Source: Candidatus Buchananbacteria bacterium
GTDB lineage: Bacteria; Patescibacteriota; Patescibacteriia; 2-01-FULL-39-33
Direction: 5' to 3'
Assembly (NCBI GenBank): GCA_041666505.1
Contig: JBAYGU010000002.1
Location: 1 to 59,411 of the forward strand
DNA length: 59,411 nt
In this document: piece after piece, positions 12,801-57,106 of the stretch
How positions within the stretch are numbered: position 1 is the first letter of the stretch
Layout of the letters: each line of letters opens with the position of its first letter
Made by a program: the position numbers and the translations under genes
Notes under the pieces: model-generated
Database searches by the model: none
The model's input: the letters and a program-made list of their open reading frames with translations, nothing else
Told to the model about the DNA's origin: nothing

Positions 12801-15800
12801 AGTCATCGCTTATACGGATGATTCCGACAACTATAAGATCAATTTCATCCGCAGCAGTAATTGGGATACGAATACCGAGTATAAAGCAGTCGCAATCTTC
12901 GATCGCAAGGGTGTTGCGGGAACTTCCACTGCGTCCGTAACGACATTCAGCCAATCTTGCAAAATGAAAAGCGTCAAGTTCGATGTCTGGCCGCGCGGCT
13001 TGGCAAAATCCGCTGATGGCTTCTTCTGCGCCTCTGATCCTTTGACAGGCAAGCCGGATGATTGCGGCCGTTCTTCCGAGGATCTTTATGATGACGATAT
13101 GTCAGCGCCATGGACGATGAATAAGGCAGACAATGGCTATAATTTGGACAGTGATGGCATGGCGCAAGCGGCGATCGGCAATAATTATAAAGGCGGCAAT
13201 CAGCATCTGTATCGAGTCTGGCCGTTGGATAGCAATAGGTATGTGTTGCGCGGAAACAATTTCTTAGCTTCATTGTCAAATATCGGTGCTGCAAAAACCA
13301 CATTGTCAGAAATTGGCAGTACTGATTATAAGGGTGATTTTTGGACCACCCCTGGCTTCAATCCCGGCCGCTCGTTCTTTGACGTTGATATCAGCGATAG
13401 TGATCCTTCCGCAAATAATGCCTTCGGAACATTGCCCATCTTCACGTACTTTTGCAATAATCCTTGGCCGGATGCGAAGAATTTCCCCTTCATCGATAGT
13501 TCCGACAACTGCAAGGCTGGAAGCGGTTCCTGTATTAACACCAATTTCGGCACGTATTATTGCCGCGATGCCGGAAAGGCTGATTCTACCGCTGACGATC
13601 TGCCCTCTATCGCCAATTATGACGCTTCCACTAAGACATTCGGCGCCGGAACAGGTGTAGTCATGGGGCTTGCCGGCAATAATAAGCTCAAGGAATTCTT
13701 GTTTGCCGGCAGACAGGCGACTGGCAGAGATGGTGCGGCTGTGTTTATTGCCGGTTCGTCAACGAGCGATATTAGTCCGGCTATTACAAATGATACTGAA
13801 GGAAGCTTGACTAGTTCGTGGGGAGCCAACGATGGCCAAGTGAAAGATTTTGTCTATCATTTGAATGTCGCAACACTTGGAAAATTTAATATAACGCTGG
13901 AAACATCTAATGATGCCAATGCCGATATTTTTGATCTCGGTTTCAATTCCAATTACGGCACATGCGTCCAAGGCACTGACCTGATCGGCAATAAACTGTA
14001 TCAGAATTTGCTCATTTCAGTTGATGGCGTCGGGACAAGCACGATAAAAGCATTAGCCAGCGCGCCGGAAAATCATCAATTCAACCGGTTAGTTCAGCCG
14101 TTAATTTTATCGGTTGGACAGCATACTATTACAATTAGATTTTTGAATGATTGTATCTGCGATGCAGTTTATGGCCAGTCATGCGCTTCCGGCCGGCTTG
14201 ATTCTAATTTAAAAATTTACGGCATATTACTGAATAACGCTGATCCGACCGGGGCGACTGACGCCATCGGCTTGAGGATGTATAACAATAATAACCATTA
14301 TTCTCCGGAATTATGGTACAAGTCGCTGTTTAATCCCGGATTGCAGGGCAATTTGGAGAAGTTATCTGTCGATGGCTATAGCGCAGCGCAAGAAGGCAGG
14401 ACGGTTTATGTCAATGCGGCTGATTTCAACGGCGGACAATCCATTGTTTATTCCGATATATATCTGATGTCGTATAATCAGGGCGCAAGCAAAGCGACGG
14501 AAAATATCTATGGACAGATGATCAGCAATTGGTTCTTCAATGCCGGCTCCAAGGCCGATGGCGGATTGGAATATGGCGCAGCTTTGGGTTATTGCAGCCA
14601 GGGGACAGAGACCGAAGACAATAAATGCTTTACTGATTTGGACTGCGTGAAACGTAATGCCGGTTTCTGCAGATCCGAAAAAGCCAAAATTACCAGGGAT
14701 ACCCAGAGGTTGTCGGACGTGCAGGATATTTATAATTCAATGTCCGGCTATCATGATAAGCTGCGCTGTTCTAATGACTTCAGCCGCGCTTGCAGCAATA
14801 ATGCCGGCTGTTTCGGCGGTGGCACTTGCGGACATTTCTATCCGAATCTGCGCGCCGGCACATACATCACCGGCAAGACATACAGCGCCTGGCCGAGTTG
14901 GCAAGATAATCTGGCCAAGGAATTTGGAGTTAAATTGCCCGTCGATCCAATTAATAAATTCTGGGTTTGGGATGGAACTAAATCAATCAATTGCTCCAAT
15001 CCATATAATTCTGTTACTTGCTGGGATGAGACTAGCAGGAGGATGGAATGTAATCTTGATTATAATTCCGCTGTTTATGCTTATTACGGCACTAAGTCCG
15101 GCACATCTACAAGGGTTTATGCCAAGGGTGAATATAATTATGGCACTGGCGAACTCGATCCGTTTAAGGCGGTATGGTCGCCGGCCTGGCAGGATGTTGT
15201 TAATCTTAACTATGATATTTTTGGCGGATATAACAGCTTAATTAGGGGTGGCCAATTCTGCGTCGCTGCCAGTGATACTTGCGGCGACGGATCATGCAAT
15301 AATTCTGAAACTTGTTCGACTTGCCCGATAGATTGCGGCTGCAGCGGCAAAAAATCCTGCAATCAGAATGCCGGAACATGGATCTGCAGCATCAAGCAGG
15401 CGCCGGTCGCGGCAGCTAAGAACTGCGGCAATGGCACATTTAGCGATTCCGGAGAAGATTGCGATTTCATCAATGGCGTGCCACTTGTCGGTATGAACGG
15501 ATTAAATCCGATTTATGTAACATCTACGGTCAATGGCCAGCTGGCTTGTACAGATCAATGTAAATTTCCCCCATGGTTTAATGATGTCAAGGTATATTAC
15601 AGGGATAATGATTATAAGTCTTGCGGCGACGGCTTGAGGACAGACCAGGAAGAATGCGATTGCGGTACAATAGACGGAGTTTTCGGTATAGGAAATCAAA
15701 AATATAATCCGTTCATTTGTAATTCGCTCAATAGTTCATTTGATTCTTCTGCTTCGATTTATGTCTCAGACCCCTCCGAGTTAAGGGATTTTACTTTTTG

Positions 15801-17616
15801 CGACACTACTTGCCAGCGCCATGACAAGGGCAATTATTCTTATTGCGGTGACAGCCACTGGGCAGATCCCGCTGTTGTCACGGGATCGGGGGAACAATGC
15901 GATTTAGGTTTTAATAATGGCAAAGCCGGATCAGGCTGCTTGGCAGATTGTAAATGCGATTTAGCCGATGGATATGCTTGCAGCGGCGGCGTGCCGTCAA
16001 AATGCGGAAATGGGACTCCTGATTCGGGCGAAGCCTGCGATTTGGGCCTAGGAATTAATGGAACTAATGGCTGTACTACGAGTTGCGCTTGTGCGGCGAC
16101 CTACGTTTGTCCGGGCGGCGTGCCGACTAAGTGTGGCAATGCCGTTGTTGATGCCGGCGAAGCCTGCGATTTGGGTCTGGGAATTAATGGAACCAATGGC
16201 TGTACTACGAGTTGCGCTTGCAAAGCCGGTTATGATTGCACTGGAGGAATTCCCCAGCTCATGTGTGGCAATGGGCATTCTGATCCGGGTGAAAATTGCG
16301 ATTTAGGCAATCCGGCAGTTATTCCCGGCGGGCAAAACGGCGTAACCGGCAGCGGCTGCAGCAGTATTTGCGATTTTACTTGCACGGCGGCCGGACCGCT
16401 CAGCGAGCAGAATATTATCCTCTCCAAAACTAATTTCACTGTTACTGGGCAGACTGCGAATTTTTCGACTCCGAATTGCCGGCTCGCAAAGGACATTGAA
16501 TCAGATATAACGATCAGCGGTAACGTCGGTTCGACAGAGATAGTGTTCGTTACTGACGTATCCGCAAGTATGGACATCGCAAGCCTAAAAATTGCTATCA
16601 CAGCGGCCATTGCCAGGATATTCGATGAATTGCCGTCCGCAAAAATCGGCTTGGTTCATTTTTCCGATGTTGCCGCAAATGATGTCGAGGCAGCTGTTTG
16701 TCCCAGATCGCTGTGCGATGATAGCCAGGAAGCTTACTTGGATAGCAGGATAAATTTATATGCAGGCTCCGGCGGAACCAATCCGGCATCGGGATTGCAA
16801 GTTGCATCTAATCTGTTCAACGGATCAACGGCTCAGAATAAAATTATCATTTTTATGAGCGACGGTTCGCCAACTAGTAATAGTGATGACAGTATAGTTG
16901 AAAACGTGACTACCTGGGCTAATGCCAATAAGAGCGCAAGCATCGCGATTTATTCCGCTGCCCTGACAATAGATTCTAATCTGAAAGGGGCGATGAATTA
17001 CTGGTCATCCAATAACGGCGCAGGCAATAGTCCCAATTCGGCGCCTAGTACCAAATGCAGCGGATTCGTGGGACCGCTTGGAGGGTGCAATTTCGGATAT
17101 TGGATGTTAGACGATGTGTATTCAGCTGACGGCTGCAATGGAAATAATTATTGCTTCAGCAATACTGATTTAGGAAGCCTTTTCACTTCGATCATCAGCC
17201 GGGTTTTGACGAATTTGCCTCAGTCAGGAATCCAAATCAGAGTCGATGGCACTAATACTAGTTTTAATAATGTCCTGCCGAATCCTGACGGCAGCCCCAA
17301 GACTTATAATGCCAAATCAATTAATTTGCCCGCGGTGGTCTGTTCTGGCGGTTCGCACACGATGCAAATCGACTATGTGGGAGATGGAAGCGTTTCTTTG
17401 GCAAACACGAAAATTTATTATTGTCCTGATTTTACACATTTCTTAGCACAGAGTAATGCTGATAGTCAATTCGCTGGCCCAAAAAATAAAGCGAATTCTC
17501 GTGTTGCCGGTGCTTTTGAAAAAACAACTAATGCCGCAGGCAGTTTGTGGCAGGAAATTTTAAGTATTTTCTGGCAATTGCTGCCTGGCAATATAATTAA
17601 ATCATTCGTTAAATAA
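6811..17616 (+). CDS. giant surface protein (3601 aa): pilin-like N-terminus, Ig/IPT-like, Cys-rich repeats, CBM-like, C-terminal vWA
   Basis: The N-terminal module is the same as in the 3535 ORF (MLYAGFTWMTAAGDPAKVDKAKKMIQQVVIGLIIIFSAFAI). About ten CGNxKxExGExCDDGNxxxGDGCSxxC-type cysteine repeats are present. A CBM-like block begins NVDFENGTVGSAPLNW. A vWA/MIDAS signature EIVFVTDVSASMD ... GGTNPASGL ... IIIFMSDGSPT lies near nt 16530-17220. Confidence 0.85.
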   Translation: MLQKNKKLILTSLLLIAAFLFLPAIVFAAGEVPSLGLFGGIFGEATLAQIIIRLIQFFLTVLGFIALVIMLYAGFTWMTAAGDPAKVDKAKKMIQQVVIGLIIIFSAFAITAFIYDRFGPPVGPPNGCVGPECPPPPSCVGPGCTPYWTNYPPEIAYINPALDVLSNTDQRTLAATSTSDDISNGAPGNYVSIVGRYFGNVPGKIFFVSRSDGSRIQAQLAPCARSWSSNLIIALVPAGLTLSGASHEADVATQDPLRNYDVIIEKLASDSSTLTSNIWGFQVNSIERPGICSMVPNHGVYPATTTLTGFKFPIVTPRNIVWSISPNFTSSTGSNWSSSTVVDVVPQDLAGRSLVSIFNGESYSNSFLFMISNGRAGSPCGYDTQSCREDITTCDAETDLACQFCSTDPTKPNYQENCNISRNCTCQPIVDESCEYNASSTLNSYRNCTVGGCLGQEACSNKSVWSKSCELPAGSTCVPFLGNSSNIAAFSWAFSALKNPAPGMSCKSEIWNDDTCDVNGCIDTNLACDPLATADHPACTCVPKDQLCTVGKIDTTTCPALGACKQVKACQDSGHWGECAVTPGCIPYPLVPASTIASYSWSFGANNGNGDVGPMVETSCDGSIDCSKNRLPSPSPWSDEWNAANHPELGIQNDKACLNAEIYARFTAAMSSATISSSTIRLYVSSTSGWIDQTNAKVEEVEPLLSEGEGDNADSFAIKLKPGIDLDPNSIYRVFLSNQIRDVVGRNLIDNPSGARNSLCAVGGSSPTAAAGVCWSFITRPSGPDAICQIGCVNCGPNKYFNRYYGQEKEHKVTPVSLDNACISLNNRDYAWDWSQEQQNLGGAVTNGWFLQKFFSATYSWLTNPFAADTIGIASQPANTVTTGYGTTTAYQESRWKTNADYKSWFGADDIDYFRIKGQVKATGNVGVCAVHNNFTDPIVIENQYCSKTSSSTNPQLNKQILQSPSPWKGQTDACTNAAIFALFSRNMFNSSLLELSSPLIDGRYAVKIGNFEIYKCSNGAAATSSNFASRATNCTLLNKTVSDKWTANVFNYNHKDITLAELTAMSASQLGSSTPEGIAIYPPTGTALDKDSWYKIAIKGGESGVRGADSTLNESPEGVLQVPSKNAQLDSGAGYWYYWYFKTGLGECPIDQVAVLPQIKFMPKIGETQQYLADPYAANCNHLNPYRYKWKWDSLVNPFSDRCSAANPTSGDYIATICESGASCNPANEPDLSVFGKAAVKAFGQNEGNTKITAAAVQGECKDYKWGAGELQVGFGGFKVSEHSNSNCLNTDLLINFTQDAKSTSLYSNVKLYQCDDAACQTVSESNLKSIDINSPQGLPGNPNPLFTNQVYFTPRSSDLLEPGKTYRVVIKGGQSGVVSAYNTNLLNLNYSLVPNSGGEACDPSLYPWRPGDHQAGLCSATCTLTGNLCGTTSAQCNPATDPLCDATCHKAGNSNTIASCGNSKIEATENCDDGNTKNGDGCSSHCLLEGSNSAYGSLCGNGKVERGEACDDGNISNGDSCSSKCLLEAVDNNVLTNVDFENGTVGSAPLNWSVASQSHSSVAISDTYARSGTKSVKITQDANQPYPGICNQVICADFPAWLKCTWLPATSQCQFDQPDNAHPMTPKPIYNSGQTFIWGNTHRVMWGSLYYDVSNLGFRIGQKYIVKFNYKGEIDPQSRVDAQFSFNPGWIAQCNQKQAPNIKPDGSCLYGSDCSDQPGYCCVQAPVQTKCYTGVNLPTLSSGNFGVGSWKEYRTEFTYTSELAQLFNSAGKLTNTISLSIPYANITNGTTLYIDDFSVERVGSDPNAPICGNSKIEAGEECDSGSANGPANRCGSNCLLNGAPAAAAGGTCGNKKLENGQFDSYSWTFVLTDKAQVCQAVNFELNPCPNGVWSISADSNVSDLSLKFYKGSKSDTGSCISDAQMNNLSFWRRIFNQFVRIIKSFLGFRSVIAADWWCPINDYADGAFDAAALSSMRLGNYKRDITIDGAAQNTEVIAYTDDSDNYKINFIRSSNWDTNTEYKAVAIFDRKGVAGTSTASVTTFSQSCKMKSVKFDVWPRGLAKSADGFFCASDPLTGKPDDCGRSSEDLYDDDMSAPWTMNKADNGYNLDSDGMAQAAIGNNYKGGNQHLYRVWPLDSNRYVLRGNNFLASLSNIGAAKTTLSEIGSTDYKGDFWTTPGFNPGRSFFDVDISDSDPSANNAFGTLPIFTYFCNNPWPDAKNFPFIDSSDNCKAGSGSCINTNFGTYYCRDAGKADSTADDLPSIANYDASTKTFGAGTGVVMGLAGNNKLKEFLFAGRQATGRDGAAVFIAGSSTSDISPAITNDTEGSLTSSWGANDGQVKDFVYHLNVATLGKFNITLETSNDANADIFDLGFNSNYGTCVQGTDLIGNKLYQNLLISVDGVGTSTIKALASAPENHQFNRLVQPLILSVGQHTITIRFLNDCICDAVYGQSCASGRLDSNLKIYGILLNNADPTGATDAIGLRMYNNNNHYSPELWYKSLFNPGLQGNLEKLSVDGYSAAQEGRTVYVNAADFNGGQSIVYSDIYLMSYNQGASKATENIYGQMISNWFFNAGSKADGGLEYGAALGYCSQGTETEDNKCFTDLDCVKRNAGFCRSEKAKITRDTQRLSDVQDIYNSMSGYHDKLRCSNDFSRACSNNAGCFGGGTCGHFYPNLRAGTYITGKTYSAWPSWQDNLAKEFGVKLPVDPINKFWVWDGTKSINCSNPYNSVTCWDETSRRMECNLDYNSAVYAYYGTKSGTSTRVYAKGEYNYGTGELDPFKAVWSPAWQDVVNLNYDIFGGYNSLIRGGQFCVAASDTCGDGSCNNSETCSTCPIDCGCSGKKSCNQNAGTWICSIKQAPVAAAKNCGNGTFSDSGEDCDFINGVPLVGMNGLNPIYVTSTVNGQLACTDQCKFPPWFNDVKVYYRDNDYKSCGDGLRTDQEECDCGTIDGVFGIGNQKYNPFICNSLNSSFDSSASIYVSDPSELRDFTFCDTTCQRHDKGNYSYCGDSHWADPAVVTGSGEQCDLGFNNGKAGSGCLADCKCDLADGYACSGGVPSKCGNGTPDSGEACDLGLGINGTNGCTTSCACAATYVCPGGVPTKCGNAVVDAGEACDLGLGINGTNGCTTSCACKAGYDCTGGIPQLMCGNGHSDPGENCDLGNPAVIPGGQNGVTGSGCSSICDFTCTAAGPLSEQNIILSKTNFTVTGQTANFSTPNCRLAKDIESDITISGNVGSTEIVFVTDVSASMDIASLKIAITAAIARIFDELPSAKIGLVHFSDVAANDVEAAVCPRSLCDDSQEAYLDSRINLYAGSGGTNPASGLQVASNLFNGSTAQNKIIIFMSDGSPTSNSDDSIVENVTTWANANKSASIAIYSAALTIDSNLKGAMNYWSSNNGAGNSPNSAPSTKCSGFVGPLGGCNFGYWMLDDVYSADGCNGNNYCFSNTDLGSLFTSIISRVLTNLPQSGIQIRVDGTNTSFNNVLPNPDGSPKTYNAKSINLPAVVCSGGSHTMQIDYVGDGSVSLANTKIYYCPDFTHFLAQSNADSQFAGPKNKANSRVAGAFEKTTNAAGSLWQEILSIFWQLLPGNIIKSFVK
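16027..16229 (+). repeat. 129-nt (43-aa) tandem duplication inside the giant gene
   Basis: ggcgaagcctgcgatttgggcctaggaattaatggaactaatggctgtactacgagttgcgcttg at 16027 recurs at 16156 with only a few substitutions. It encodes GEACDLGLGINGTNGCTTSCAC twice. Confidence 0.85.
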
Positions 17617-30612: not shown

Positions 30613-30623
30613 TCCGTCACTCT

Positions 30624-30726
30624 CGTCATCCCGGAATTACAATGTAATCATTGGAATATCCGGGATCCATGCTAATTTTAATTAATTTAAATCTAACCTG
30701 GATCCCGGGTCAAGCCCGGGATGACG
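30624..30726. mobile_element. MITE-like palindromic element A (cgtcatcccgg ... ccgggatgacg)
   Basis: The left arm is cgtcatcccggaattacaatgtaatcattggaatatccgggatcca. The right arm aacctggatcccgggtcaagcccgggatgacg is shortened. Same family as 41991-42040 and 48073-48201. Confidence 0.75.
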
Positions 30727-39783: not shown

Positions 39784-41916
39784 ATGCCCCGTAAAATTCC
39801 TATCGAAAAGATCAGAAACATCGGCATCATCGCCCATATCGACGCCGGCAAGACCACCGTTTCCGAACGCGTCTTGTTCTATACCGGAAAAAAGCATAAG
39901 ATTGGCGAAGTGCACGAAGGCGAAGCGACCATGGACTGGATGGAGCAGGAACAGGAACGCGGTATCACTATCACTTCCGCTGCGACGACTTGCTATTGGC
40001 CGAACGCCGAATGGCTGGGCGGAGGAGATATCCAGATCAACTTGATCGATACTCCCGGCCACGTCGACTTTACCGCTGAGGTAGAGCGTTCTTTGCGCGT
40101 GCTTGACGGCGGCGTCATCGTCTTTGACGGCGTTGCCGGCGTAGAGCCGCAATCCGAGACTGTCTGGCGCCAGAGCGAAAAGTATCACGTGCCGAAATTA
40201 GGATTCATCAACAAGATGGATCGCATGGGCGCGAACTTCTATAACGATTTGAAATCGATCCATGACCGCTTGACTATCCATGCCCATCCGATTCAGCTGC
40301 CAATCGGCGCCGCTGAGACTTTTTCCGGCATCATCGATCTGTTCGAAATGAAAGCGGAAATCTATCAGGATGATCTTGGCACGAAATTCGATGAAAGCGA
40401 AGTTCCAGCCGATGAAGTCGAGCGCGCCAAGAAATTCCGCGCAGAGCTTGTAGAAGCTATCGTTGAGACTGATGAAACATTGCTGGAAAGATTTTTGGCC
40501 GGAGAAGAAATTTCCGTTCCTGATCTGAAGAAAGCATTGCGCAAAGCAGTCATCGCTAACAAGATCGTGCCGATCCTTTGCGGCTCTGCTTTAAAGAACA
40601 AGGGCGTACAATTCATGCTTAACGCTGTTGCTGAATATTTGCCGTCGCCTTTGGATATTCCAGCGCCTATCGGCAAGGATGTCGATGACGAGACCAAGGA
40701 GATTACTCTCAAGGTTACCGATGAAGCGCCTTTGGCCGGCTTGGCTTTCAAGATCGCCACTGATCCGTTCGTCGGCAAATTGGTTTTTTTCCGCGTTTAT
40801 TCCGGTGTGCTTAAATCCGGTTCATATATTATCAATAATAAGAACGGCAATAAGGAGCGCGTCGGCCGCATCTTGCGCATGCATGCCAATTCCCGCGAAG
40901 AAGTTGATGAGGTTTACGCCGGAGAAATCGCCGCTTTGGTCGGCATCCGCGACGTGACCACCGGTATCACATTATCCGATCCGTCATTTCCGATCCTGTT
41001 GGAAAACATTGTGTTCCCTGATCCGGTCATCGATATCGCTATCGAGCCTAAGACTAAAGCCGATCAAGAAAAAATGGGCTTGGCTTTATCGAAATTGGCA
41101 GAAGAAGATCCGACTTTCCGCGTGCATACTGACGAGGAAACCGGTCAGACCATCATTTCCGGCATGGGCGAATTGCATTTGGATATCATCGTTGATCGCA
41201 TGAAGCGCGAATTCAAAGTGGAAGCCAATATCGGACAGCCGCAAGTCGCTTATCGCGAAACCATCAAGACCAAGGCCGAAGCCGAAGGCAAGTACATCCG
41301 CCAATCAGGCGGCCGCGGCCAATACGGTCATTGCTGGCTCCGCGTCGAGCCTTCCGAGCCGAATGCCGGCTTCGTCTTTACTGATGAAACCAAGGGCGGT
41401 TCTATTCCGAAGGAATTCATCAAGCCGATCGAAAAAGGCTCAAGAGAAGCGATGGACCGAGGCGTTCTGGCCGGCTATCATATGATCGATGTCAAAGTTA
41501 CTGTTTTCGACGGTTCCTATCATGATGTCGATTCATCCGAAGCCGCTTTCAAAATCGCCGCTTCCATGGCTTTCCAAGAAGCTTCTAGAAAAGCCGGAGC
41601 CTGCATTCTTGAACCTATCATGAAAATCGAAGTCGTCACCCCGGAGCAATTCATGGGCGATGTCATCGGTGACCTTAACTCTCGTCGCGCCATTATCGGC
41701 TCGATGGAAGACAGGGGATCGGGAGCCGCAGCTGTCAAGGTTATCAGCGCCCAAGTGCCTTTGGCCGAAATGTTTGGCTATACCACGATCATGCGTTCCA
41801 TGACTCAAGGCCGCGCCTCGAGCTCGATGGAATTCTCCAGATATATGGAAGTCCCGAAGAACGTCGAAATCAAGATTGTTGAAGCCAGAGCCGGCAAGAT
41901 GGAAAGAATCAAATAA
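39784..41916 (+). CDS. fusA: elongation factor G
   Basis: [21 protein letters not shown]; full-length at 710 aa. Confidence 0.97.
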
Positions 41917-41934
41917 TCTCTTTCAATATAAAAA

Positions 41935-41968
41935 ACATCCTCGCCTTGATCGGTGAGGATGTTTTTTT
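41935..41968 (+). terminator. fusA rho-independent terminator
   Basis: 11-bp stem acatcctcgcc / ggtgaggatgt with one G-U pair and loop ttgatc, followed by a T7 run. Confidence 0.8.
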
Positions 41969-41990
41969 ATCTCATATTCATTTGTTTTTT

Positions 41991-42040
41991 CGTCATCCTG
42001 GAATTTTTATGTAATCATAAAAATATCCGGGATCCAGGTT
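41991..42040 (+). mobile_element. solo MITE-family arm B
   Basis: cgtcatcctggaatttttatgtaatcataaaaatatccgggatccaggtt is one 50-nt arm of the family seen at 30624 and 48073. Confidence 0.7.
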
Positions 42041-42060
42041 TAATTTTAGTTTATTTTCTC

Positions 42061-42119
42061 TAATACTTTTCTTTAGAAGAAAAGTATTGCAAAAGAATCG
42101 CGCCGAAATAAATCATGGC
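42061..42119 (+). repeat. hairpin + GCAAnAGAATCGCG module, copy 1
   Basis: The hairpin aatacttttc-tttagaa-gaaaagtatt is followed by gcaaaagaatcgcgccgaaataaatcatggc. A related module lies at 59263-59342. Confidence 0.6.
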
Positions 42120-42182
42120 TAGATTTTTTATGTGATTTATTAATGGCGCAACTTCGATACAATACAAATATAAATTAAAAAC

Positions 42183-42272
42183 AAAAAAACACGGATGATG
42201 CCGTGTTGGGATTTGATTGAAAAATGATGAAAAAAATTGAGGGTCAAGCGGCTACTGCGTCGCTTGACCCTC
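42183..42272 (-). terminator. two tandem minus-strand rho-independent terminators
   Basis: The first is a 12-bp perfect stem gagggtcaagcg/cgcttgaccctc (42239-42272) followed, on the minus strand, by aattttttt. The second is the hairpin aacacgg-atgatg-ccgtgtt (42188-42207), followed on the minus strand by a T-run. Confidence 0.75.
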
Positions 42273-42982
42273 GGAACAAACAGGTGCTGCTTTCCTGACG
42301 GGCTGGCATACTATACCAGCTCCGTCTTTGCTACTTTCGCGCCCGGTGCCTCATATGGCTCCGAACGATCCTCGCGCACCCGACTGATCGGGTCGCATTT
42401 CTTCTCGTTGGTGTTTCCAGCGAGATCGCGGGAAGCCGGCCCGGAGCAGTCACGAATGACCTGCATAGCCGGCTCCCCGCACAACTTCGTTTACCAGTAC
42501 CCGTTTCCGACCAGCTTCTTCCTGCGAACACTAATCGTCGCGGTCCACCGAATCGGATAGTACTGGCTTGTTTCGCGCCGGTTCGTCTTTGGGCTAAGCC
42601 CTCGCCCGCTGAGGTAATAATTCTGCCTCAGCGGGCTACCATGAAAGAAGTCTGCTACGACCGCACATGAAGTGGGTCATGGAGGTTTTCTCCTGGTTGC
42701 GATGCGCGGGTTTTAAAGCCGCACACCTCGCCGCAGTCTCAATTTTGCCCTCTCACACGGGGCGATGTGCTACGAAAATACCGTAGCTACACAAACGCAC
42801 AACGATTGCGAATGTTATATCGCTTTCGAAGCATGCGTCTTCCTCTCCTTTCGGCATTAGTTTAGCGGCGATCAATCGGCCGTTCAACTATAGTCAGGTC
42901 GGCGAACGGCCCAAAGGCGTTCGTCCCAACTATTTACGCAGACCGCGCTATTTGTGTTACCGCGCGGTTGATGCCGTTGGAA
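42273..42982 (-). ncRNA. candidate large structured RNA or long structured 3' UTR, family unknown
   Basis: This is a GC-rich, ~700-nt stretch with no convincing ORF. It has many helices. Two contain G-U pairs only when read on the minus strand: a 13-bp helix 42428-42440/42468-42480 and a 7-bp helix at 42301-42317. A perfect 10-bp hairpin lies at 42606-42636. The stretch is bounded by the ORF stop and the terminators. Confidence 0.45.
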
Positions 42983-43333
42983 CTACACCGCAACCTGGCG
43001 TGCCACAAAAACCTTGCGGCTGAACGGGCTGCGGGTCTGCGGGTGATTCATGCGGGCGAAGTTCGCCAGCATTTCATCACGCGCGCGGTCGATCGAGTCG
43101 GGATGTTCCTCCTCGACTTCGACAGCGCTCTTCACCCGCTTTGCTGTCGACTTCTGGAATTTCACCGAGAAGCTGTGCAGCTTTTTCAGGAAATCGAGAC
43201 CGCCCAGCAGGTGGATGCCCAAATGGGCGCCGCCGCTGACGGTGATCTCGCCTTTCCCCAAGTCGATCTTGACGCCCTTCTTCTTACGGAGGGCATCAAC
43301 GACACCGCTGAGCGAATACTTCGAAATCAACAT
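42983..43333 (-). CDS. hypothetical protein with foreign (high GC3) codon usage
   Basis: 116 aa counted from the second ATG, which is preceded by agaaggaaaaagaaa. By hand count the codon positions show the coding pattern GC3 >> GC1 > GC2. Composition is K-rich and balanced. I recognise no family. Confidence 0.6.
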   Translation of the reverse strand: MLISKYSLSGVVDALRKKKGVKIDLGKGEITVSGGAHLGIHLLGGLDFLKKLHSFSVKFQKSTAKRVKSAVEVEEEHPDSIDRARDEMLANFARMNHPQTRSPFSRKVFVARQVAV

Positions 43334-43430
43334 TTTCTTTTTCCTTCTCATTTTTCAACCCGCGCCATGCGGATTGTTGTCAACGTTCTACGCTTCCCAT
43401 CGGACTTTCCGACTTTCAGCGTAATATAAC

Positions 43431-43459
43431 AGTATAGCACATGGGCAAAATTTTGTCAA
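43431..43459 (-). promoter_or_regulatory. strong sigma70-type promoter for the GC-rich minus-strand unit
   Basis: The minus strand reads TTGACA (43459-43454), a 17-nt spacer, then TATACT (43436-43431). Confidence 0.65.
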
Positions 43460-43601
43460 GTGATTTATCCCACTTAATTCCGATTAATTATCGTTATTTA
43501 TCTAAATTTAAACAAAATAAATTATTAAAAAATAGCTATTTTAATCAAAAAGTAGTTATTTTTGTATTAGTGAGGTGTAAGATATCAGTATTTATCCACA
43601 A

Positions 43602-44759
43602 CTATTCTAGCTTTAACGCCCCGGCAGTATAGTTATTACCAGAATTCCACAGCAGCCAGCCGTTGACATTATTGTCCTCGGCCGCCTTGATTTGGGCTTT
43701 TACCCGGTCTGCCGTATAAACAGCGCCTAAATTGAAGTCCTGCAGCCAGGGTCGGGATGAGCCGATGACGGGATTGCTCGAGGAAGCCATGATTGCCGCC
43801 CCTTCTTTCATTGCTTTATCTACTACGGCATAGGGGCAAAGCACCGGATTGGCGCAGCCGGCGTAGGGCGAGCGGTAATGCGACGGGTAGACCATGGGCG
43901 AGATATAGTCGAAATATCGGGCCGCATCAGGCAGAAATTGCCCGATTCCCATGTCATAACTCGGGTTTTCCGGGTGCCTCTGATATGTCAGGCCGAATAA
44001 ATCGATAGACAGGGGAATATCCAAATCAGCCAGGTCTTGGCGCAAATAGCTGTAAAAATCAGCCAATACCGCCGTTCTTTTGCTGCCGGCCGGGAAATCG
44101 TAATAGGCGATTGATTTCAGGTTGCCATCGGAGGGAAAACGGATATAATCCAGTTGCACCTCGTCAAAACCGATATCTGCCGCTTCTTTTATCTGTGCCG
44201 CCACTAATTTCCATGTTTCAGGATTAGTCATATCCAGCCAGGTTACGCCTTTATAATCCTGCCAAATGCCTCCGCCGGTATTCTTTAGCGCTACTTTAGG
44301 ATAAGTTTTGGCCGCTGTGCTGTCTTGGAAAGTGGTAATTCTGGCGATTGAATAGATATCTTTTGTTTGCAGATCAACTAAAATAGCCTGATAATCCTCG
44401 TATTTGAGCGAAACGGAGGAAAGCGGCCACTTGGCCAGCCGTTCATCGAGAGGTTTGACCATTAATTTGCCGCCCGGATCCTTAAAGTCAATAACGACGG
44501 AATTAAGTTCTGTTTTGGCGATTAGGTCGAAAAGTTTGTCTCGGCGGGCTTTTTGGCTGAAGGTATAGCCAGTCATATATATGCCTTTGACTAGAGCGGG
44601 GGTTGGAAGAGCTTTTTTGACAAAAAAAATAGTGCTGGAAGCATTCTCTGCCAGCACTTGCGGTGAAATATTGCCGTATTCAGGCCAATAATAAACAATT
44701 CCGCCGATTATTGCGGCCGATACTGCTAAAACTGCGGTTATCAGCCAAATCTTGTTCAT
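43602..44759 (-). CDS. putative glycoside hydrolase-like TIM-barrel protein (DUF4015/GHL type)
   Basis: 385 aa with an N-terminal TM/signal segment. The blocks VKGIYMTGY, NSVVIDFKD and GFDEVQLDYIRFP are as I remember for this family. Confidence 0.7.
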   Translation of the reverse strand: MNKIWLITAVLAVSAAIIGGIVYYWPEYGNISPQVLAENASSTIFFVKKALPTPALVKGIYMTGYTFSQKARRDKLFDLIAKTELNSVVIDFKDPGGKLMVKPLDERLAKWPLSSVSLKYEDYQAILVDLQTKDIYSIARITTFQDSTAAKTYPKVALKNTGGGIWQDYKGVTWLDMTNPETWKLVAAQIKEAADIGFDEVQLDYIRFPSDGNLKSIAYYDFPAGSKRTAVLADFYSYLRQDLADLDIPLSIDLFGLTYQRHPENPSYDMGIGQFLPDAARYFDYISPMVYPSHYRSPYAGCANPVLCPYAVVDKAMKEGAAIMASSSNPVIGSSRPWLQDFNLGAVYTADRVKAQIKAAEDNNVNGWLLWNSGNNYTAGALKLE

Positions 44760-44910
44760 ATTCTATTATTATGGTAATTATACCACACTTTATCCACAAC
44801 CAGCCACAATCCTTTACATTTAGCTATAATTCAATTATTATTACTAAATCAGTACAAATATTGAAATTATAAATAATTTCTTATTTTCTTAATTTCTTAA
44901 TAAACTTGAT

Positions 44911-45279
44911 ATGCCAAACTTTCAAAAATTGGTAAATTTACTCAAAAAAACAGGAGATAAGGCAGTAATTCTTGACGAAAGCGGCGAGCCGGGCTATGTC
45001 ATTATGACCGTCGCCGACTACGAAGATTTAATTTTGGGCAAATCTGGCGTCTCGGGCTTGACAGAAGTCGAACTTTTAGATAAAATAAATCGTGATATTG
45101 CAATTTGGAAAGACAACCAGGAATTAAGGGAACTCTCTGTGGATCAGTATAATTTCGCCAAGGATTTGGGAGATTATCTGCCGGAGGGAAACTTATCCAA
45201 TTTTAGCGATAATGATGGTAATAATCTGCCTAATATTATCGATGAGGATCGCTATTATTTCGAACCAGTTGAAGGCTAA
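44911..45279 (+). CDS. hypothetical protein, N-terminus Phd/YefM-like
   Basis: 122 aa. KAVILDESGEPGYVIMTVADYEDL resembles antitoxin-type N-termini, but no partner toxin gene is adjacent. Confidence 0.5.
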   Translation: MPNFQKLVNLLKKTGDKAVILDESGEPGYVIMTVADYEDLILGKSGVSGLTEVELLDKINRDIAIWKDNQELRELSVDQYNFAKDLGDYLPEGNLSNFSDNDGNNLPNIIDEDRYYFEPVEG

Positions 45280-45442: not shown

Positions 45443-46627
45443 ATGGCAGAACAATTCCAACGCACTAAGCCGCATGTAAACGTCGGCACAATCGGTCACG
45501 TTGACCACGGCAAAACCACTTTGACTGCGGCTATTTTGGCTACTTTGACTGCTCGCGGCTTTACAGCTCAGAGCAAATCAGTCGATCAGATCGACGCAGC
45601 TCCTTAAGAAAAAGCTCGCGGTATCACTATCGCTACAGCTCATGTAGAATATGAGACAGAAAAGAGGCACTATGCTCACGTTGACTGCCCAGGCCATGCT
45701 GATTATATCAAGAACATGATCACTGGCGCCGCTCAGATGGATGGTTCCATCTTGGTTGTTGCCGCTACTGACGGCCCGATGCCTCAGACTCGCGAACATA
45801 TCTTGCTCGCCAGACAGGTTGGCGTTCCTTACATCATCGTTTTCATCAACAAAGTTGATCAGGCTGATCCGGAAATGCTTGAATTAGTCGAAGGAGAAAT
45901 CCGCGACTTATTGACCAAGTATGAATATCCTGGCGACACTACTCCGATCATCAAGGGCTCCGCTTTGAAAGCCTTGCAGAATCCTGCAGGTCCGGACGGC
46001 GATTGCATTATGGAATTGATGAATGCCTTGGATACTTATATCCCGGAACCTCAGCGCGCTACCGATCAGCCTTTCATGATGCCTATTGAAGATGTCTTCT
46101 CAATCGAAGGACGCGGCACTGTTGTCACTGGCAGAATCGAACGCGGTATCATCAAATTGAACGAAGAAGTCGAACTTGTCGGTTTAAGGCCGACTGCTAA
46201 GACTGTAGTTACTGGTATCGAAATGTTTAACAAGAATTTGGATGAAGGCAGAGCAGGTGATAACGCAGGTTTACTCTTGCGCGGCATCAAGAAGGAAGAT
46301 GTCGAACGCGGCCAGGTTTTGGCTAAAGTCGGCTCTATCACTCCTCATGCTGAATTCGAAGCTGAAGTCTATATCTTGAGCAAGGAAGAAGGCGGACGCC
46401 ACAAACCTTTCTTCAAGGGTTACAAGCCTCAATTCTACGTCCGCACTACTGACGTAACAGGCGAGATCGAATTGCCGGAAGGATCAGAAATGGTCATGCC
46501 TGGCGATACCGTCAACCTGAAGATCAAATTGGGCAAGACTGTCGCTATCGAAGATAAGATGAAATTCACTATTCGTGAAGGCGGCCATACTGTCGGCGCC
46601 GGTGTCGTAACGAAGATCATTAAGTAA
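45443..46627 (+). CDS. tuf: elongation factor Tu, interrupted by an in-frame TAA at 45605-45607
   Basis: [27 protein letters not shown]...[13 protein letters not shown]...DCPGHADY continues in the same frame into the tracked ORF 45716..46627. The stop replaces the first Glu of the conserved [11 protein letters not shown] block (GAA to TAA). Confidence 0.85.
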
Positions 46628-48049: not shown

Positions 48050-48072
48050 TAATTATTAAATTATATCTCTCT

Positions 48073-48201
48073 CGTCATTCCAGAATTTTGATGTAATCGT
48101 CAAAATATCTGGAATCCAGGTTCGATTAGGATTAAGATTAGGATTAGGATTAACCTGGATCCCGGATATCCCAATGATTACATTGTGATTCCGGGATGAC
48201 G
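48073..48201. mobile_element. MITE-like palindromic element C (complete, two 50-nt arms)
   Basis: The left arm is cgtcattccagaattttgatgtaatcgtcaaaatatctggaatccaggtt. The centre is attagg-type hexamer repeats. The right arm aacctggatcccggatatcccaatgattacattgtgattccgggatgacg is the reverse complement of the family arm. Confidence 0.8.
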
Positions 48202-48244
48202 ATTAGAGGGTATTGAAGCATGAGTGAAAAAAAATAAAAAAGTT

Positions 48245-50259: not shown

Positions 50260-50264
50260 CAAAT

Positions 50265-50370
50265 AAAGATACGAATATACTAATTTACTAATGATACGAA
50301 TAGGTACGAATAATTTCAGAAAAAATTCGCAGCCATTAGTATCATTCGTACAATTCGTAGATTAGTATCA
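50265..50370 (+). repeat. ribosomal-operon intergenic repeat (R1), copy 1, rplB|rpsS
   Basis: aaagatacgaatatactaat...gaat...cattagtatcattcgtacaattcgtagattagtatca. The two halves are imperfectly complementary. Confidence 0.9.
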
Positions 50371-50382
50371 TATAACTAATTT

Positions 50383-50670
50383 ATGTCTAGAAGTTTAAAA
50401 AAGGGTCCTTACGTTGATGCCAGACTGCTCCAAAAGATACAGAAGCAGCCGAAGGGATCCAAAGCCGTTATCAAAACTTGGTCCAGAAACAGCGCGATTA
50501 CTCCTGAAATGGTCGGACTTACTTTCGGCGTGCACAACGGCAAGGAGCATATTCCGGTTTTTGTCGTCGAAAACATGGTCGGCCATAAGCTAGGCGAATT
50601 CTCACCGACACGTAAATTCTACAGGCATGGCGGCAAGATGCAGAAGACTATTGAGGCAACTAAAAAATAA
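50383..50670 (+). CDS. rpsS: 30S ribosomal protein S19
   Basis: [18 protein letters not shown]. Confidence 0.97.
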
Positions 50671-51992: not shown

Positions 51993-52403
51993 ATGTTAAT
52001 GCCTAAAAAGTTAAAACACAGAAAACAGCATCGCCCCGATGTTCGCCACAAAGGCGCCGCAACCAAGGGTAATTACTTAAGTTTCGGCAGTTACGGCTTG
52101 AAGGCCGTAACCGGCGGCTGGGTCAAGGCCCAACAGCTTGAGTCTGCGAGGCGCGTTATCGCTAAATATATCAAACGCGGCGGCAAGACCTGGATCCGTA
52201 TTTTCCCGCATGCTGCCATTACCAACAAGGGATCGCAGAGCACTATGGGCGGCGGAAAAGGCGCTCCGGAATATTATGTGGCAGTTGTCCGGCCGGGCAC
52301 GATCATTTTTGAGATCGACGGCGTGCCGGAAGATCAGGCTAGGGAAGCCATGGAGTTGGCAGCATACAAATTGCCGGTCCAAGCTAAATTCGTAAAGAAT
52401 TAA
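51993..52403 (+). CDS. rplP: 50S ribosomal protein L16
   Basis: MLMPKKLKHRKQHR..., MGGGKGAPEYYV. Confidence 0.97.
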   Translation: MLMPKKLKHRKQHRPDVRHKGAATKGNYLSFGSYGLKAVTGGWVKAQQLESARRVIAKYIKRGGKTWIRIFPHAAITNKGSQSTMGGGKGAPEYYVAVVRPGTIIFEIDGVPEDQAREAMELAAYKLPVQAKFVKN

Positions 52404-52537
52404 AGATACAAATATACTAATGGTACGAATGATACGAATAAATACTAATAATTTCAGAAAGAATTCGTAGTCATTAGTATCATTCGTACAATTAAGTCAT
52501 TAGTATCATTCGTACAATTATTAGTAGATTAGTATCA
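52402..52537 (+). repeat. R1 repeat, copy 2, rplP|rpmC (with internal duplication)
   Basis: It starts inside the rplP stop codon (tAAAGATAC). The block cattagtatcattcgtacaatt occurs twice. Confidence 0.9.
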
Positions 52538-52982: not shown

Positions 52983-53351
52983 ATGCTTCAACTAAGATCA
53001 ATCGTAAAATCAGCAGATAATACCGGAGCCAAGAGGCTTGCAGTCTTTAATGTGTCCGGCGGCTTTAAGAAACGCTATGGCCGCATCGGCGATATCGTTA
53101 CTTTGTCCGTCAAGGAAGCTGCGCCTCATTCCCAGGTCAAAAAAGGCGATGTAGTCAAGGGCGTAGTCGTTCGCACCCGGAAAGAAACCAGGCGCGCCGA
53201 CGGTTCTTACATCCGCTTTGATGATAATGCCGTCGTTCTGATCGACGCTAAAAAAGAAATGCGCGGCACCCGTATCTTCGGGCCTGTCGCCAGGGAATTA
53301 AGGAATCTGGGCTATCAAAAAATTATTTCTTTGGCGCCGGAAGTACTATAA
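52983..53351 (+). CDS. rplN: 50S ribosomal protein L14
   Basis: [27 protein letters not shown]. Confidence 0.97.
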
Positions 53352-53352
53352 T

Positions 53353-53458
53353 AAAGATACGAATATACTAATTTACTAATGATACGAATAAATACTAATA
53401 ATTTCAGAAAGAATTCGCAGCCATTAGTATCATTCGTACAATTCGTAGATTAGTATCA
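53353..53458 (+). repeat. R1 repeat, copy 3, rplN|rplX
   Basis: Nearly identical to copy 1. Confidence 0.9.
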
Positions 53459-53469
53459 ATAATAATTAT

Positions 53470-53772
53470 ATGAAAATCAAAACAGGAGACAAAGTAATAA
53501 TGCTTGCCGGCAAGAATAAAGGTAAAACCGGCAAAGTGCTGCAGGTGATGACGCCAGACAAGGTGGTCATTGAGGGTTTGAATTTGCTGATCAAGCATCA
53601 GAAAGCCAGAAAAGGCGGCGAGAAGGGCCAGCGGATCCAGTTTCCGGCAGCCGTGCCTGTTTCTAAGGTTGCCTTAGTCTGCCCGAAGTGCGGCAAGGCC
53701 GCTCGTGTCGGCTTCAAGATCGAGGGTGATGCCAAATCAAGGATGTGCAAGAAGTGTTCAGAAACAATCTAA
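53470..53772 (+). CDS. rplX: 50S ribosomal protein L24
   Basis: MKIKTGDKVIMLAGKNKGKTGKVL; a CxxC...CxxC zinc-ribbon-like tail. Confidence 0.95.
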   Translation: MKIKTGDKVIMLAGKNKGKTGKVLQVMTPDKVVIEGLNLLIKHQKARKGGEKGQRIQFPAAVPVSKVALVCPKCGKAARVGFKIEGDAKSRMCKKCSETI

Positions 53773-55504: not shown

Positions 55505-55611
55505 AAAGATACGAATATACTAATAATACTAATGATACGAATGAATACTAATAAATTAAGAAAGAATTCGTACCTATTAGTATCATTCGTACAATTCGTA
55601 GATTAGTATCA
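55505..55611 (+). repeat. R1 repeat, copy 4, rplF|rplR
   Basis: Same ends as the other copies. The central variant is aaattaagaaagaattcgtacc. Confidence 0.9.
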
Positions 55612-55620
55612 TTAAACTAT

Positions 55621-55974
55621 ATGAATAGAATACAATCAAAAATCCAAAGAGTCGAAAGGCGCGCCAAGCGCGTCAGAGTGAAGATTTCCGGCACAGCCTC
55701 CAAGCCTCGCCTGTCTGTTTATCGCAGTTTGAGCCATATTTACGCTCAATTGATCAATGATGAGAAGGGCTTGACTCTTGCCAGCGCTAAAGATACTGAA
55801 GTTAAAGCCGGCAAGACGAAGACGGAAAAAGCGTTCGAGGTCGGCAAGCTTTTAGCCGAAAGATCCAAGGCTGCCAAGATCAGCGAGGCAGTCTTTGACC
55901 GCGGATCATTCAAGTATCATGGCCGCGTCAAGGCCGTTGCTGAAGGCGCTCGCGAAGGCGGAATAAAGATTTAA
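55621..55974 (+). CDS. rplR: 50S ribosomal protein L18
   Basis: [36 protein letters not shown]. Confidence 0.97.
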
Positions 55975-56551: not shown

Positions 56552-56658
56552 AAAGATACGAATATACTAATAATACTAATGATACGAATGGATACTAATA
56601 AATTAAGAAAGAATTCGTATTCATTCGTATCATTCGTACAATTCGTAGATTAGTATCA
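56552..56658 (+). repeat. R1 repeat, copy 5, rpsE|rplO (position where rpmD normally sits)
   Basis: Closest to copy 4. It ends 13 nt before the rplO ATG. Confidence 0.9.
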
Positions 56659-56671
56659 ATATAATATTTAT

Positions 56672-57106
56672 ATGTCACTCAATTTATCAAATTTACATCC
56701 TGCCAAGGGCGCGACGAAGAAACGCAAAGTCATCGGCCGTGGCGGCAAGCGCGGAACTTATTCCGGCAAGGGCATGAAAGGCCAGAGAGCCAGAAGCGGC
56801 GTCTCCGGTTTGAAGGCTTTGGGCATGAAGCAGATGATGCTTTCCACTCCTAAGTTGCGAGGCTTTAAATCCCTTAATGTTAAGACTCCTGTCGTCAACG
56901 TTAGCGAACTTAACGCATTCGAGGATGGCGTGATCGTCGATATCAGAAAAATGATCCAGATGGGTTTTATCGATAAGAGAGAAAAACGCGTCAAGGTCTT
57001 GGGTGACGGCAAATTGTCCAAGAAGCTGACTGTTATCGCCAATGGCTATAGTGCCACGGCTAAAGCTGCTATCGAAGCGGCTGGCGGCAAAGCGGAAATC
57101 AAGTAA
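56672..57106 (+). CDS. rplO: 50S ribosomal protein L15
   Basis: GRGGKRGTYSGKGMKGQRARSG. Confidence 0.95.
   Translation: MSLNLSNLHPAKGATKKRKVIGRGGKRGTYSGKGMKGQRARSGVSGLKALGMKQMMLSTPKLRGFKSLNVKTPVVNVSELNAFEDGVIVDIRKMIQMGFIDKREKRVKVLGDGKLSKKLTVIANGYSATAKAAIEAAGGKAEIK

Follow-up and report, generated by a model that had tools for sequence, protein, structure and literature searches.

What is encoded by the GC-rich, compositionally deviant unit that occupies the minus strand between fusA and tuf in a contig of Candidatus Buchananbacteria, and is it a gene, an RNA or a piece of foreign DNA? The stretch in question comprises positions 1 to 59,411 of contig JBAYGU010000002.1 (assembly GCA_041666505.1), here called the window. 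A first-pass annotation made from the letters alone had described a complete minus-strand transcription unit with one small open reading frame (ORF) and about 700 nt of helix-rich non-coding RNA, and had offered as explanations a large novel structured RNA paired with a small protein, a horizontally acquired gene with a decayed neighbour, or the remnant of an integrated element. Here we describe orthologues of this unit in related species and a conserved 15-codon ORF (hereafter the micro-ORF) within its supposedly non-coding part. The explanation that we favour, at roughly even confidence, is that the unit gives rise to a strongly transcribed, stable and structured bicistronic small-gene transcript, in kind a dual-function peptide-coding RNA.

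Read on the minus strand, positions 43459-42178 hold, in that order, a promoter, a leader, an ORF of 116 codons (ORF1), a structured tail and two terminators (Table 1). The proposal of a complete transcription unit was borne out: the predicted promoter matches the consensus at 11 of 12 positions and additionally carries TG at the extended -10, the leader opens with a two-tier stem-loop, and the tandem terminators are hairpins followed by U-runs, facing a convergent fusA both in the window and in the related locus L119. The 38-nt promoter-plus-discriminator pattern occurs a single time in the 59-kb window, with a chance expectation of 0; a loose promoter scan gave no enrichment (2 sites vs 2.8 expected from shuffles). 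With its own predicted promoter and terminators, the unit would form an independent transcript, as expected of a dual-function small RNA (sRNA). The public contig carries a gene call at ORF1, and the deviant codon composition noted for this ORF is real: its GC contents at the three codon positions are 0.59/0.37/0.78, and its third-position value (GC3) lies 3.5 standard deviations above the mean of the window genes (0.52 +/- 0.07, maximum 0.64). The claim that the whole segment is much richer in GC than its surroundings stands against the immediate AT-rich flanks, whose 27-33% GC makes the contrast appear sharp, whereas the excess over the neighbouring genes is modest (55.5% vs 48-51%); the window as a whole has 45.4%. 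In the tail (42240-42982, ~745 nt), stops interrupt all six frames and leave no long ORF. Its minus-strand minimum free energy (MFE), calculated for 42240-42985, is -326 kcal/mol, corresponding to z = -8.8, or -10.5 with a separate shuffle set, while z is ~0 for the flanking fusA and DUF4015 genes. The helices listed in the first-pass annotation are present after small adjustments (from 10 to 11 bp, 13 to 15 bp and 7 to 8 bp), and the argument that their G-U pairs favour the minus strand agrees with a minus-strand fold that is better than the plus-strand fold by 10-12 kcal/mol over 42280-42680.

Orthologous units were found in five further species-level loci (L083, L084/L119, L085/L086, L087/L120 and L094), reached through relatives of the adjacent DUF4015 protein (93, 82, 76 and 73% identity) together with a promoter-pattern scan of JGI metagenomes. 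The unit loci share the layout tuf, orf122, DUF4015, unit and convergent fusA, and all five orthologous loci have the promoter, the 5' stem-loop and an ORF led by a Shine-Dalgarno sequence at the same place. Promoter identity across the orthologues is 76-100%, compared with 49-71% in the intergenic DNA upstream. The orthologous ORFs have a GC3 of 0.55-0.85 (computable for four), and the DNA that follows the promoter has 50-61% GC. Since GC-rich orthologous units occupy the same locus, the GC richness is no sign of recent transfer, and these comparisons indicate that the compositional anomaly is old and maintained. The unit is confined to one Patescibacteria clade of about genus rank: remoter DUF4015 homologues (60% identity) lie elsewhere in their genomes and without it, and nhmmer and blastn searches of 80 GTDB fusA loci returned no homologue of the element. 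The EF-G of the window is at most 71% identical to that of any GTDB species representative, its best labelled relatives being Falkowbacteria and Moraniibacteriota. These have the gene order fusA, orf122, tuf, with insertions in the fusA-orf122 gap that differ from genome to genome. The unit had been said to break the classical fusA-tuf adjacency, which in this lineage is already interrupted by orf122.

Recent acquisition of foreign DNA with a decayed gene, or a chimeric assembly, would account for the GC3 of ORF1 and for its lack of relatives in the searched sets. Both are largely refuted, and we regard them as scarcely credible. Because an independent Logan contig (run SRR6484324) is 100% identical across 42134-45066, including both GC/AT junctions, a chimera is excluded; the window itself corresponds to ENA contig k141_854330 (L001), apart from four single-base differences, all outside the unit. 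Decay of a horizontally acquired gene is contradicted by the GC-rich orthologues at the same locus in five related species, by a folding z of about -10, which would be unexpected for a decayed gene, and by the lack of Pfam similarity in any frame. Checked as a possible pseudogene, the ten longest open segments in a six-frame translation of the tail had no Pfam match at E <= 1, and neither had the plus-strand ORFs 42237-42560 and 42968-43429, the latter mostly antisense to ORF1.

The description of the tail as non-coding was correct as regards long ORFs and failed at one point, the micro-ORF. It can be compared in the four loci that reach that far (window, L087, L119 and L094), where it has 14-15 codons and encodes MLRKRYNIRNRCAFV in the window, MLRNRYQIRNRSSFG in L087, MLRKR-LIRNRGSFL in L119 and MLRPRRSIRGRCSFG in L094, giving the consensus M-L-R-x-R-x-x-I-R-N/G-R-x-S/A-F-x-stop. 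At 7 of the 15 codon columns the amino acid is kept with differing codons, as opposed to 0 of 13 in either of the remaining frames; Leu2, for instance, appears as CUU, CUA, CUG and CUC, and Arg3 as CGA or AGG. The variable positions comprise 14 of 16 third positions, with 8 first and 6 second positions; the sole indel is exactly one codon long, and a Shine-Dalgarno sequence precedes each copy. The same 48 nt fold as a three-tier hairpin in which the U and G of the micro-ORF's own AUG are paired. In this hairpin 90% of the alignment cells are paired, compared with 27-45% when the structure is slid along the alignment, and 3 of 10 pairs have changed on both sides. Because the synonymous codon pattern and the covarying hairpin fall on the same nucleotides, peptide and structure are both constrained. 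We read the micro-ORF as a translated sequence whose initiation would be gated by folding, and its codon pattern points to the amino-acid-level constraint of a dual-function (coding) sRNA. The peptides have an isoelectric point (pI) of ~12, a grand average of hydropathy (GRAVY) of -0.4 to -1.25 and 4-5 Arg/Lys among 14-15 residues, and their pattern does not recur in 1.6 Mb of compared loci. The hairpin that begins at the window's stop codon has an equivalent of other sequence at the same place in L087; in L119 a hairpin spans the stop, and in L094 none is predicted. A likeness of the micro-peptide to the N-terminus of ribosomal protein L34 was dropped, as only the basic flavour was in common.

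The second conserved structure is the leader, ACGCU-GAAA-GUCGGA-AAG-UCCGAU-GGGA-AGCGU in the window, which consists of an outer stem, a purine-rich internal loop and an inner hairpin. We compared 11 leaders, six from the unit loci and five from other loci (L092, L099, L108, L111 and L113). Folded singly, all 11 form the outer stem from nt 1-3 together with the inner hairpin, at -12 to -17 kcal/mol, and the outer stem occurs in compensatory variants (ACGCU/AGCGU, ACGAUC/GAUCGU and ACGUU/AACGU). It was judged from these single-sequence folds because realignment with a covariance model misplaced its 3' strand (45% of cells paired). For the inner helix the same realignment gave 89% of cells paired, two-sided changes in 3 of its 5 pairs and a covariation score of 0.285, compared with 0.03-0.12 for slid controls. 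The stem-loop is followed by a single-stranded GUUGACAAC motif that is intact in 5 leaders, carries one change in L083, is degenerate in L085 and L087, and is absent from L092, L111 and L113. An equivalent of the second leader hairpin, with differing stem sequences, is present in L083 and L094. A second promoter at the GUUGACAAC motif was rejected for want of a -10 element.

In the five other loci, the promoter and 5' stem-loop stand ahead of GC3-rich orphan ORFs at another locus, unrelated to ORF1. These ORFs are full-length in L099, L108 and L111 (314-337 aa) and cut short in L092 and L113; their GC3 is 0.75-0.86 where measured, and the family has no match in Pfam, NCBIfam, PADLOC or PDB. 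The orphan ORF is convergent with a PGA_cap gene in L108 and L111, and in L108 it follows ychF and a 23S-rRNA-IVP/bAvd-like gene. As the same leader drives unrelated orphan ORFs, promoter and leader seem to serve this group as a reusable expression module.

Could the transcript instead be chiefly a functional large RNA, such as an RNAIII-like trans-acting regulator or the scaffold of an RNA-protein particle, in which the 3' domain does the work and the ORFs are secondary or encode binding partners? We consider this rather unlikely, and of the earlier proposal of a large structured RNA with a small protein we retain the strong fold, while the micro-ORF and the size of the 3' part count against it. 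In its favour, the tails of the window and of L087 both fold at z of about -10 (-10.5 and -10.3; L119, -5.3; L094, truncated, -3.8), these tails have many unique long helices with minus-strand G-U pairs, and the two products encoded are both of strongly basic character. Three species, moreover, have one helix and several blocks in common. The 11-bp hairpin helix has a homologue, UAGCC(C/U)G(C/U)U/AGCGGGCUA, as the closing helix of a multi-hairpin domain in L087 and L094, and one pair shows changes on both sides; the window and L087 share an AAAGCAGYACCU motif ahead of the terminator; and the region 42636..42693 is conserved as RNA only, L087 having there a GGGG-GAA-CCCC hairpin and a 6-codon ORF. 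Long GC-rich intergenic regions are in addition a recognised signal of structured non-coding RNA (PMC6429828, PMC8723152). Against a primarily RNA-level role, the part 3' of the micro-ORF measures ~550 nt in the window and ~500 nt in L087 but only ~110 nt in the close relative L119, which argues against a size-constrained ornate RNA. Sequence conservation is low outside the micro-ORF module, no Rfam family matches the window or its orthologues, and the best-conserved piece, the micro-ORF, behaves as a coding sequence. Two candidate features of the 3' region were discarded: a third conserved ORF, since the 93-aa frame of L087 crosses its own terminator and is not shared, and a group II intron domain V, for which the helix at 42481-42427 shows an AGC/G-U base, yet is 55 nt long instead of ~34 nt and finds no Rfam match.

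A bolder variant, to which we assign a low probability, is that the unit gives rise to a small ribonucleoprotein of a new kind. In it, a 0.4-0.75-kb RNA rich in hairpins would be bound by two of its own products, the arginine-rich 15-residue peptide and the basic protein, and the particle would have a cellular role of its own, for example in regulation or host/phage interaction; the promoter-leader module would then be the sign of a broader regulon that comprises GC-rich orphan genes. Judging from their charge, both basic products might bind nucleic acid, possibly their own RNA.

ORF1 itself appears to evolve fast. The orthologous loci have Shine-Dalgarno-led ORFs of 95-127 aa at the ORF1 position, and all products are hydrophilic and basic (pI 9.8-11.3), yet they can hardly be aligned from one species to another, where the neighbouring proteins show 73-98% identity. 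A basic N-terminal stretch is common to L083, L094 and L119, and a C-terminal motif E-x-x-R-x-x-R-E-E-M-L-N-A-I-A-G to L087, L094 and L119, where the window ORF1 reads DRARDEMLANFAR...RKVFVARQ. Homology of the window ORF1 with the others is probable, though not proven. A search of 5.8 G proteins and a full HMMER search of 1.84 G representatives returned no relative of ORF1 other than itself, tblastn of JGI metagenome contigs returned none, and a profile of the ORF1 family recovered only the four loci already known. ORF1, its relatives and the open frames of the tail had nothing significant in Pfam, PHROGs (best E = 0.12), NCBIfam, PADLOC or PDB. An AlphaFold single-sequence model was weak (mean predicted local distance difference test score 57.6), and Foldseek found no PDB match to it below E = 0.3.

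Such divergence might be expected of a moron-like cassette that entered a variable intergenic site in the distant past and carries cargo under diversifying selection, for instance in host/phage interaction. Compatible with our preferred explanation because it concerns origin more than mechanism, this history seems to us unlikely, somewhat more so than a functional large RNA. It would fit the unit's own promoter and terminators, its deviant GC3, the unalignable ORF1, the fusA to orf122 site with its differing insertions in other Patescibacteria, the same promoter and stem-loop ahead of unrelated 314-337-aa ORFans at another locus, and the small dispersed repeats that flank the unit. However, intergenic DNA is also near saturation at this divergence, so that the unalignable ORF1s may reflect very weak constraint and need not imply cassette replacement. 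Furthermore, the locus has stayed stable in six species or more, there is no recombinase, integrase or phage gene nearby, and PADLOC gave no match. Nor did blastn against phage and plasmid collections, and three viral-contig pattern scans were empty; together with orthology at one locus, this leaves the suggestion of an integrated-element remnant without support. An integron cassette was likewise rejected, as there is no recombinase domain among DUF4015, orf122, tuf and fusA, no attC-like repeat flanks the ORF, and the motifs around ORF1 do not fit the core sites GTTRRRY/RYYYAAC.

The fusA-orf122 site and the spacers around the unit offer several further observations. In L012 (2990-3960; CAZECR010000022.1, a Patescibacteria metagenome-assembled genome) the site holds two other small GC-rich units without sequence relationship to that of the window, one with an 82-aa ORF and one with a 33-aa ORF of GC3 0.94 that is followed by ~260 nt of 67% GC (z -4 to -5) and a terminator. 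A dispersed repeat of ~50-67 nt, similar to repetitive extragenic palindromes (REP) or miniature inverted-repeat transposable elements (MITE), occurs in the window at 41990-42056, 30623-30688, 48072-48122 and 48152-48202; the first copy lies in the AT-rich spacer from the unit to fusA, and others lie in L084 (11-66), L111, L092 and L108. This spacer (41917-42190, 270 nt, from terminator 2 to fusA) is hairpin-rich, with z of -4 to -10; the fusA terminator in it, at 41930-41967, is bidirectional, and a perfect inverted repeat of 12 bp lies at 42062-42088.

The sequestered start codon also raises the possibility of a type I-like toxin-antitoxin or addiction module, in which a toxic product is kept untranslated through hok-like folding of the mRNA, including fold-back of the 3' end onto the 5' end. 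The RNA appears to be very stable and highly structured, and in the window the segment 42236-42217, between the two terminators, is complementary to the ORF1 ribosome-binding region (43358-43339) over 20 nt with 11 contiguous pairs. This complementarity was, however, not seen by eye in L087 and L119, and as an A/U-rich match it could be due to chance; the fold-back, being a feature of the window only, was dropped. The peptides are hydrophilic and arginine-rich rather than membrane-type, as their GRAVY values attest, and an admittedly insensitive consensus scan of 41800-43800 found no sigma-70-like promoter on the plus strand. We thus regard a toxin module as improbable.

We therefore return to a bicistronic transcript with two small coding regions. 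Under this explanation, the near-consensus extended -10 promoter would fire and the RNA would open directly with the 5'-terminal stem-loop, which may protect it from 5'-dependent decay. ORF1 would yield a small, basic, fast-evolving protein, and the GC-rich RNA after it would carry the Shine-Dalgarno-led 15-codon ORF for an arginine-rich peptide. With its start codon locked in the conserved hairpin, the micro-ORF would be translated under the control of RNA folding or of ribosomes arriving from upstream, while the variable hairpin array and the two terminators would seal the 3' end. We infer these roles in transcription, translation, stabilisation and gating from predicted signals. Several points weigh against the proposal. 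Promoter, terminators and translation are predictions, and a stabilising role for the 5' stem-loop is proposed from its likeness to leaders of the ompA and aprE type. Because the micro-ORF is covered by four sequences and the unit by six loci altogether, the covariation statistics are thin, and the RNA hairpin within the micro-ORF could explain part of its conservation. The ~550 nt of 3' hairpins exceed what a stabiliser would need, so that a function at the RNA level is possible. Finally, when a profile of the C-terminal motif was run against 1025 six-frame segments, the window ORF1 came out best, yet at E = 0.27.

Does the unit belong to a described family? Rfam gave 0 gathering-level matches in the whole window, nothing meaningful at E <= 10 in 41800-43700 and 0 matches at E <= 1 in four orthologous loci, and an ARAGORN scan of the window gave neither tRNA nor tmRNA. 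GOLLD, ROOL, OLE, raiA, HEARO, RNase P, group I/II introns, 6S and SRP all fell short of the gathering threshold in the window, in agreement with the first-pass annotation, which had found no signatures of RNase P, tmRNA or group II domain V. A GGAAAGUCCG string in the leader that might recall RNase P is not conserved in the orthologues. A leader-peptide attenuator was rejected, there being no gene downstream in the same orientation, only a convergent fusA (window and L119). No part of the unit falls into a described family of RNAs or proteins; as a kind, a structured RNA bearing a small ORF is known.

Table 1 Features of the minus-strand unit, and leader-bearing units at another locus (window positions unless a locus is named)
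Feature	Coordinates	Strand	Basis or remark
AT-rich region upstream of promoter	43460-43600		
Promoter TTGACA-17 nt-TATACT, TG at extended -10	43431..43459	-	11/12 consensus matches
5'-terminal two-tier stem-loop, starting at or next to predicted +1	43390..43422	-	-14.6 kcal/mol
Single-stranded GUUGACAAC motif after 5' stem-loop	43376..43384	-	Leader alignment
Second leader hairpin CAAUCCGC-AUGGC-GCGGGUUG	43356..43376	-	Folds
ORF1, 116 aa, pI 10.1	42983..43347 (with Shine-Dalgarno)	-	Shine-Dalgarno GAAGGA 43347-43342; ATG 43333; stop 42985-42983
Post-ORF1 motif CCAACGGCAUCAACC	42966..42980	-	Common to L094 and L087
Hairpin after CCAACGGCAUCAACC motif	42968-42942	-	MFE
Micro-ORF module	42787..42850	-	Shine-Dalgarno AAGGAGAGG 42850-42842; 15-codon ORF MLRKRYNIRNRCAFV* 42834-42787
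Hairpin from micro-ORF stop codon, GCUACGG-UAUUU-UCGUAGC	42769..42787	-	MFE fold
GGAG-AAAAC-CUCC hairpin	42693-42681	-	
Second mini-ORF, 14 codons, MTHFMCGRSRLLSW*	42680-42636	-	Peptide not conserved
Helix GCCCGCUGAGG/CCUCAGCGGGC, 11-bp perfect hairpin	42636-42604	-	
GGGC-UUA-GCCC hairpin	42601-42591	-	
3' hairpin array	42273..42567	-	Three-tier domain 42567-42493
15-bp helix 42481-42467/42441-42427, three G-U pairs, UUCG-capped tip	42481-42427	-	
Array hairpins	42425-42403, 42393-42378, 42367-42340, 42326-42297, 42295-42273	-	
8-bp hairpin	42320-42302	-	
Terminator 1, intrinsic	42230..42272	-	12-bp perfect stem 42272-42239, then U-run CAAUUUUUUU
Terminator 2, intrinsic	42178..42207	-	Hairpin 42207-42188, then U-run
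Leader-bearing orphan-ORF unit, L099	1-1253		
Leader-bearing orphan-ORF unit, L108	2880-4000		
Leader-bearing orphan-ORF unit, L111	392-1580		

Some features of the wider window deserve mention. The protein encoded by orf122 (44911-45279) is small, acidic and conserved. Its gene directly precedes tuf in many Patescibacteria, and in the loci that have it the product is 31-98% identical to that of the window, which has only a sub-threshold match to PhdYeFM (E = 0.044). In the window, tuf carries an in-frame TAA at 45605-45607 where the conserved Glu of D-x-A-P-E-E is expected; ENA contig k141_854330 has GAA there and an intact 394-aa gene, and the other differences between the window and this contig are at 46966, 51076 and 51998. 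Five copies of an AT-rich intergenic repeat of ~123 nt (50262-50385, 52401-52508, 53350-53472, 55505-55623 and 56552-56674), 89-94% identical to a reference copy, lie between S10/spc ribosomal-protein genes, and some are partly palindromic, matching themselves in reverse orientation at 74-77% identity. Upstream, the window contains two very large ORFs, 3535-6729 (1064 aa) and 6811-17616 (3601 aa).

Patescibacteria have tiny genomes, and still this clade keeps a 0.8-1.3-kb unit with a strong predicted promoter beside its translation-factor genes. The unit contains a candidate conserved bacterial micro-protein of 14-15 aa, missed by standard gene callers, and it is unusual in that coding and structural constraint fall on the same nucleotides of a 15-codon ORF. 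It is also unusual for a hypervariable ORF1 to stand behind a conserved leader that recurs at other orphan genes, and the promoter and 5' stem-loop module could help to find further highly expressed orphan genes in uncultured bacteria. More generally, a compositional island need not mean recent horizontal transfer.

How does the unit compare with known systems? Phage morons and integron gene cassettes are small units with their own expression signals and deviant composition. Our unit resembles them as a small unit between housekeeping genes, with a shared promoter and leader before different ORFs, but it lacks a prophage, an integrase and attC-type repeats and is syntenic across species. Type I toxin mRNAs, as in hok/sok, are likewise compact, highly structured and presumably long-lived, with a sequestered start codon, and the window offers a possible 3'-5' fold-back; unlike theirs, the peptides of the unit are hydrophilic and basic, not hydrophobic, and a consensus scan found no antisense promoter. 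The E. coli ompA 5' untranslated region, the Bacillus subtilis aprE leader and the cryIIIA STAB-SD are 5'-terminal mRNA stabilisers. The unit shares with them a stem-loop at or within 1-2 nt of the predicted 5' end, here kept through compensatory changes, and differs in that its element is two-tiered, with a conserved purine-rich internal loop and then the GUUGACAAC motif; stem-loop and motif could equally be a protein-binding site. Lambda N-boxB and HIV Tat and Rev exemplify arginine-rich-motif peptides that bind RNA hairpins. The micro-peptide, which is free-standing and not a domain of a protein, is like them in composition only, with 14-15 residues, 4-5 Arg/Lys and a pI of ~12, and stems from a hairpin-filled RNA. 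Staphylococcus aureus RNAIII/hld and B. subtilis SR1/SR1P, finally, are dual-function peptide-coding regulatory RNAs. In contrast to these, the unit carries a pair of ORFs, of which one encodes 116 aa, a hairpin array whose length varies among close relatives, and no sequence or Rfam relationship to either; like them, it comprises a predicted transcript of its own, folded into multiple hairpins over several hundred nucleotides, with a short Shine-Dalgarno-led ORF that encodes a conserved peptide.

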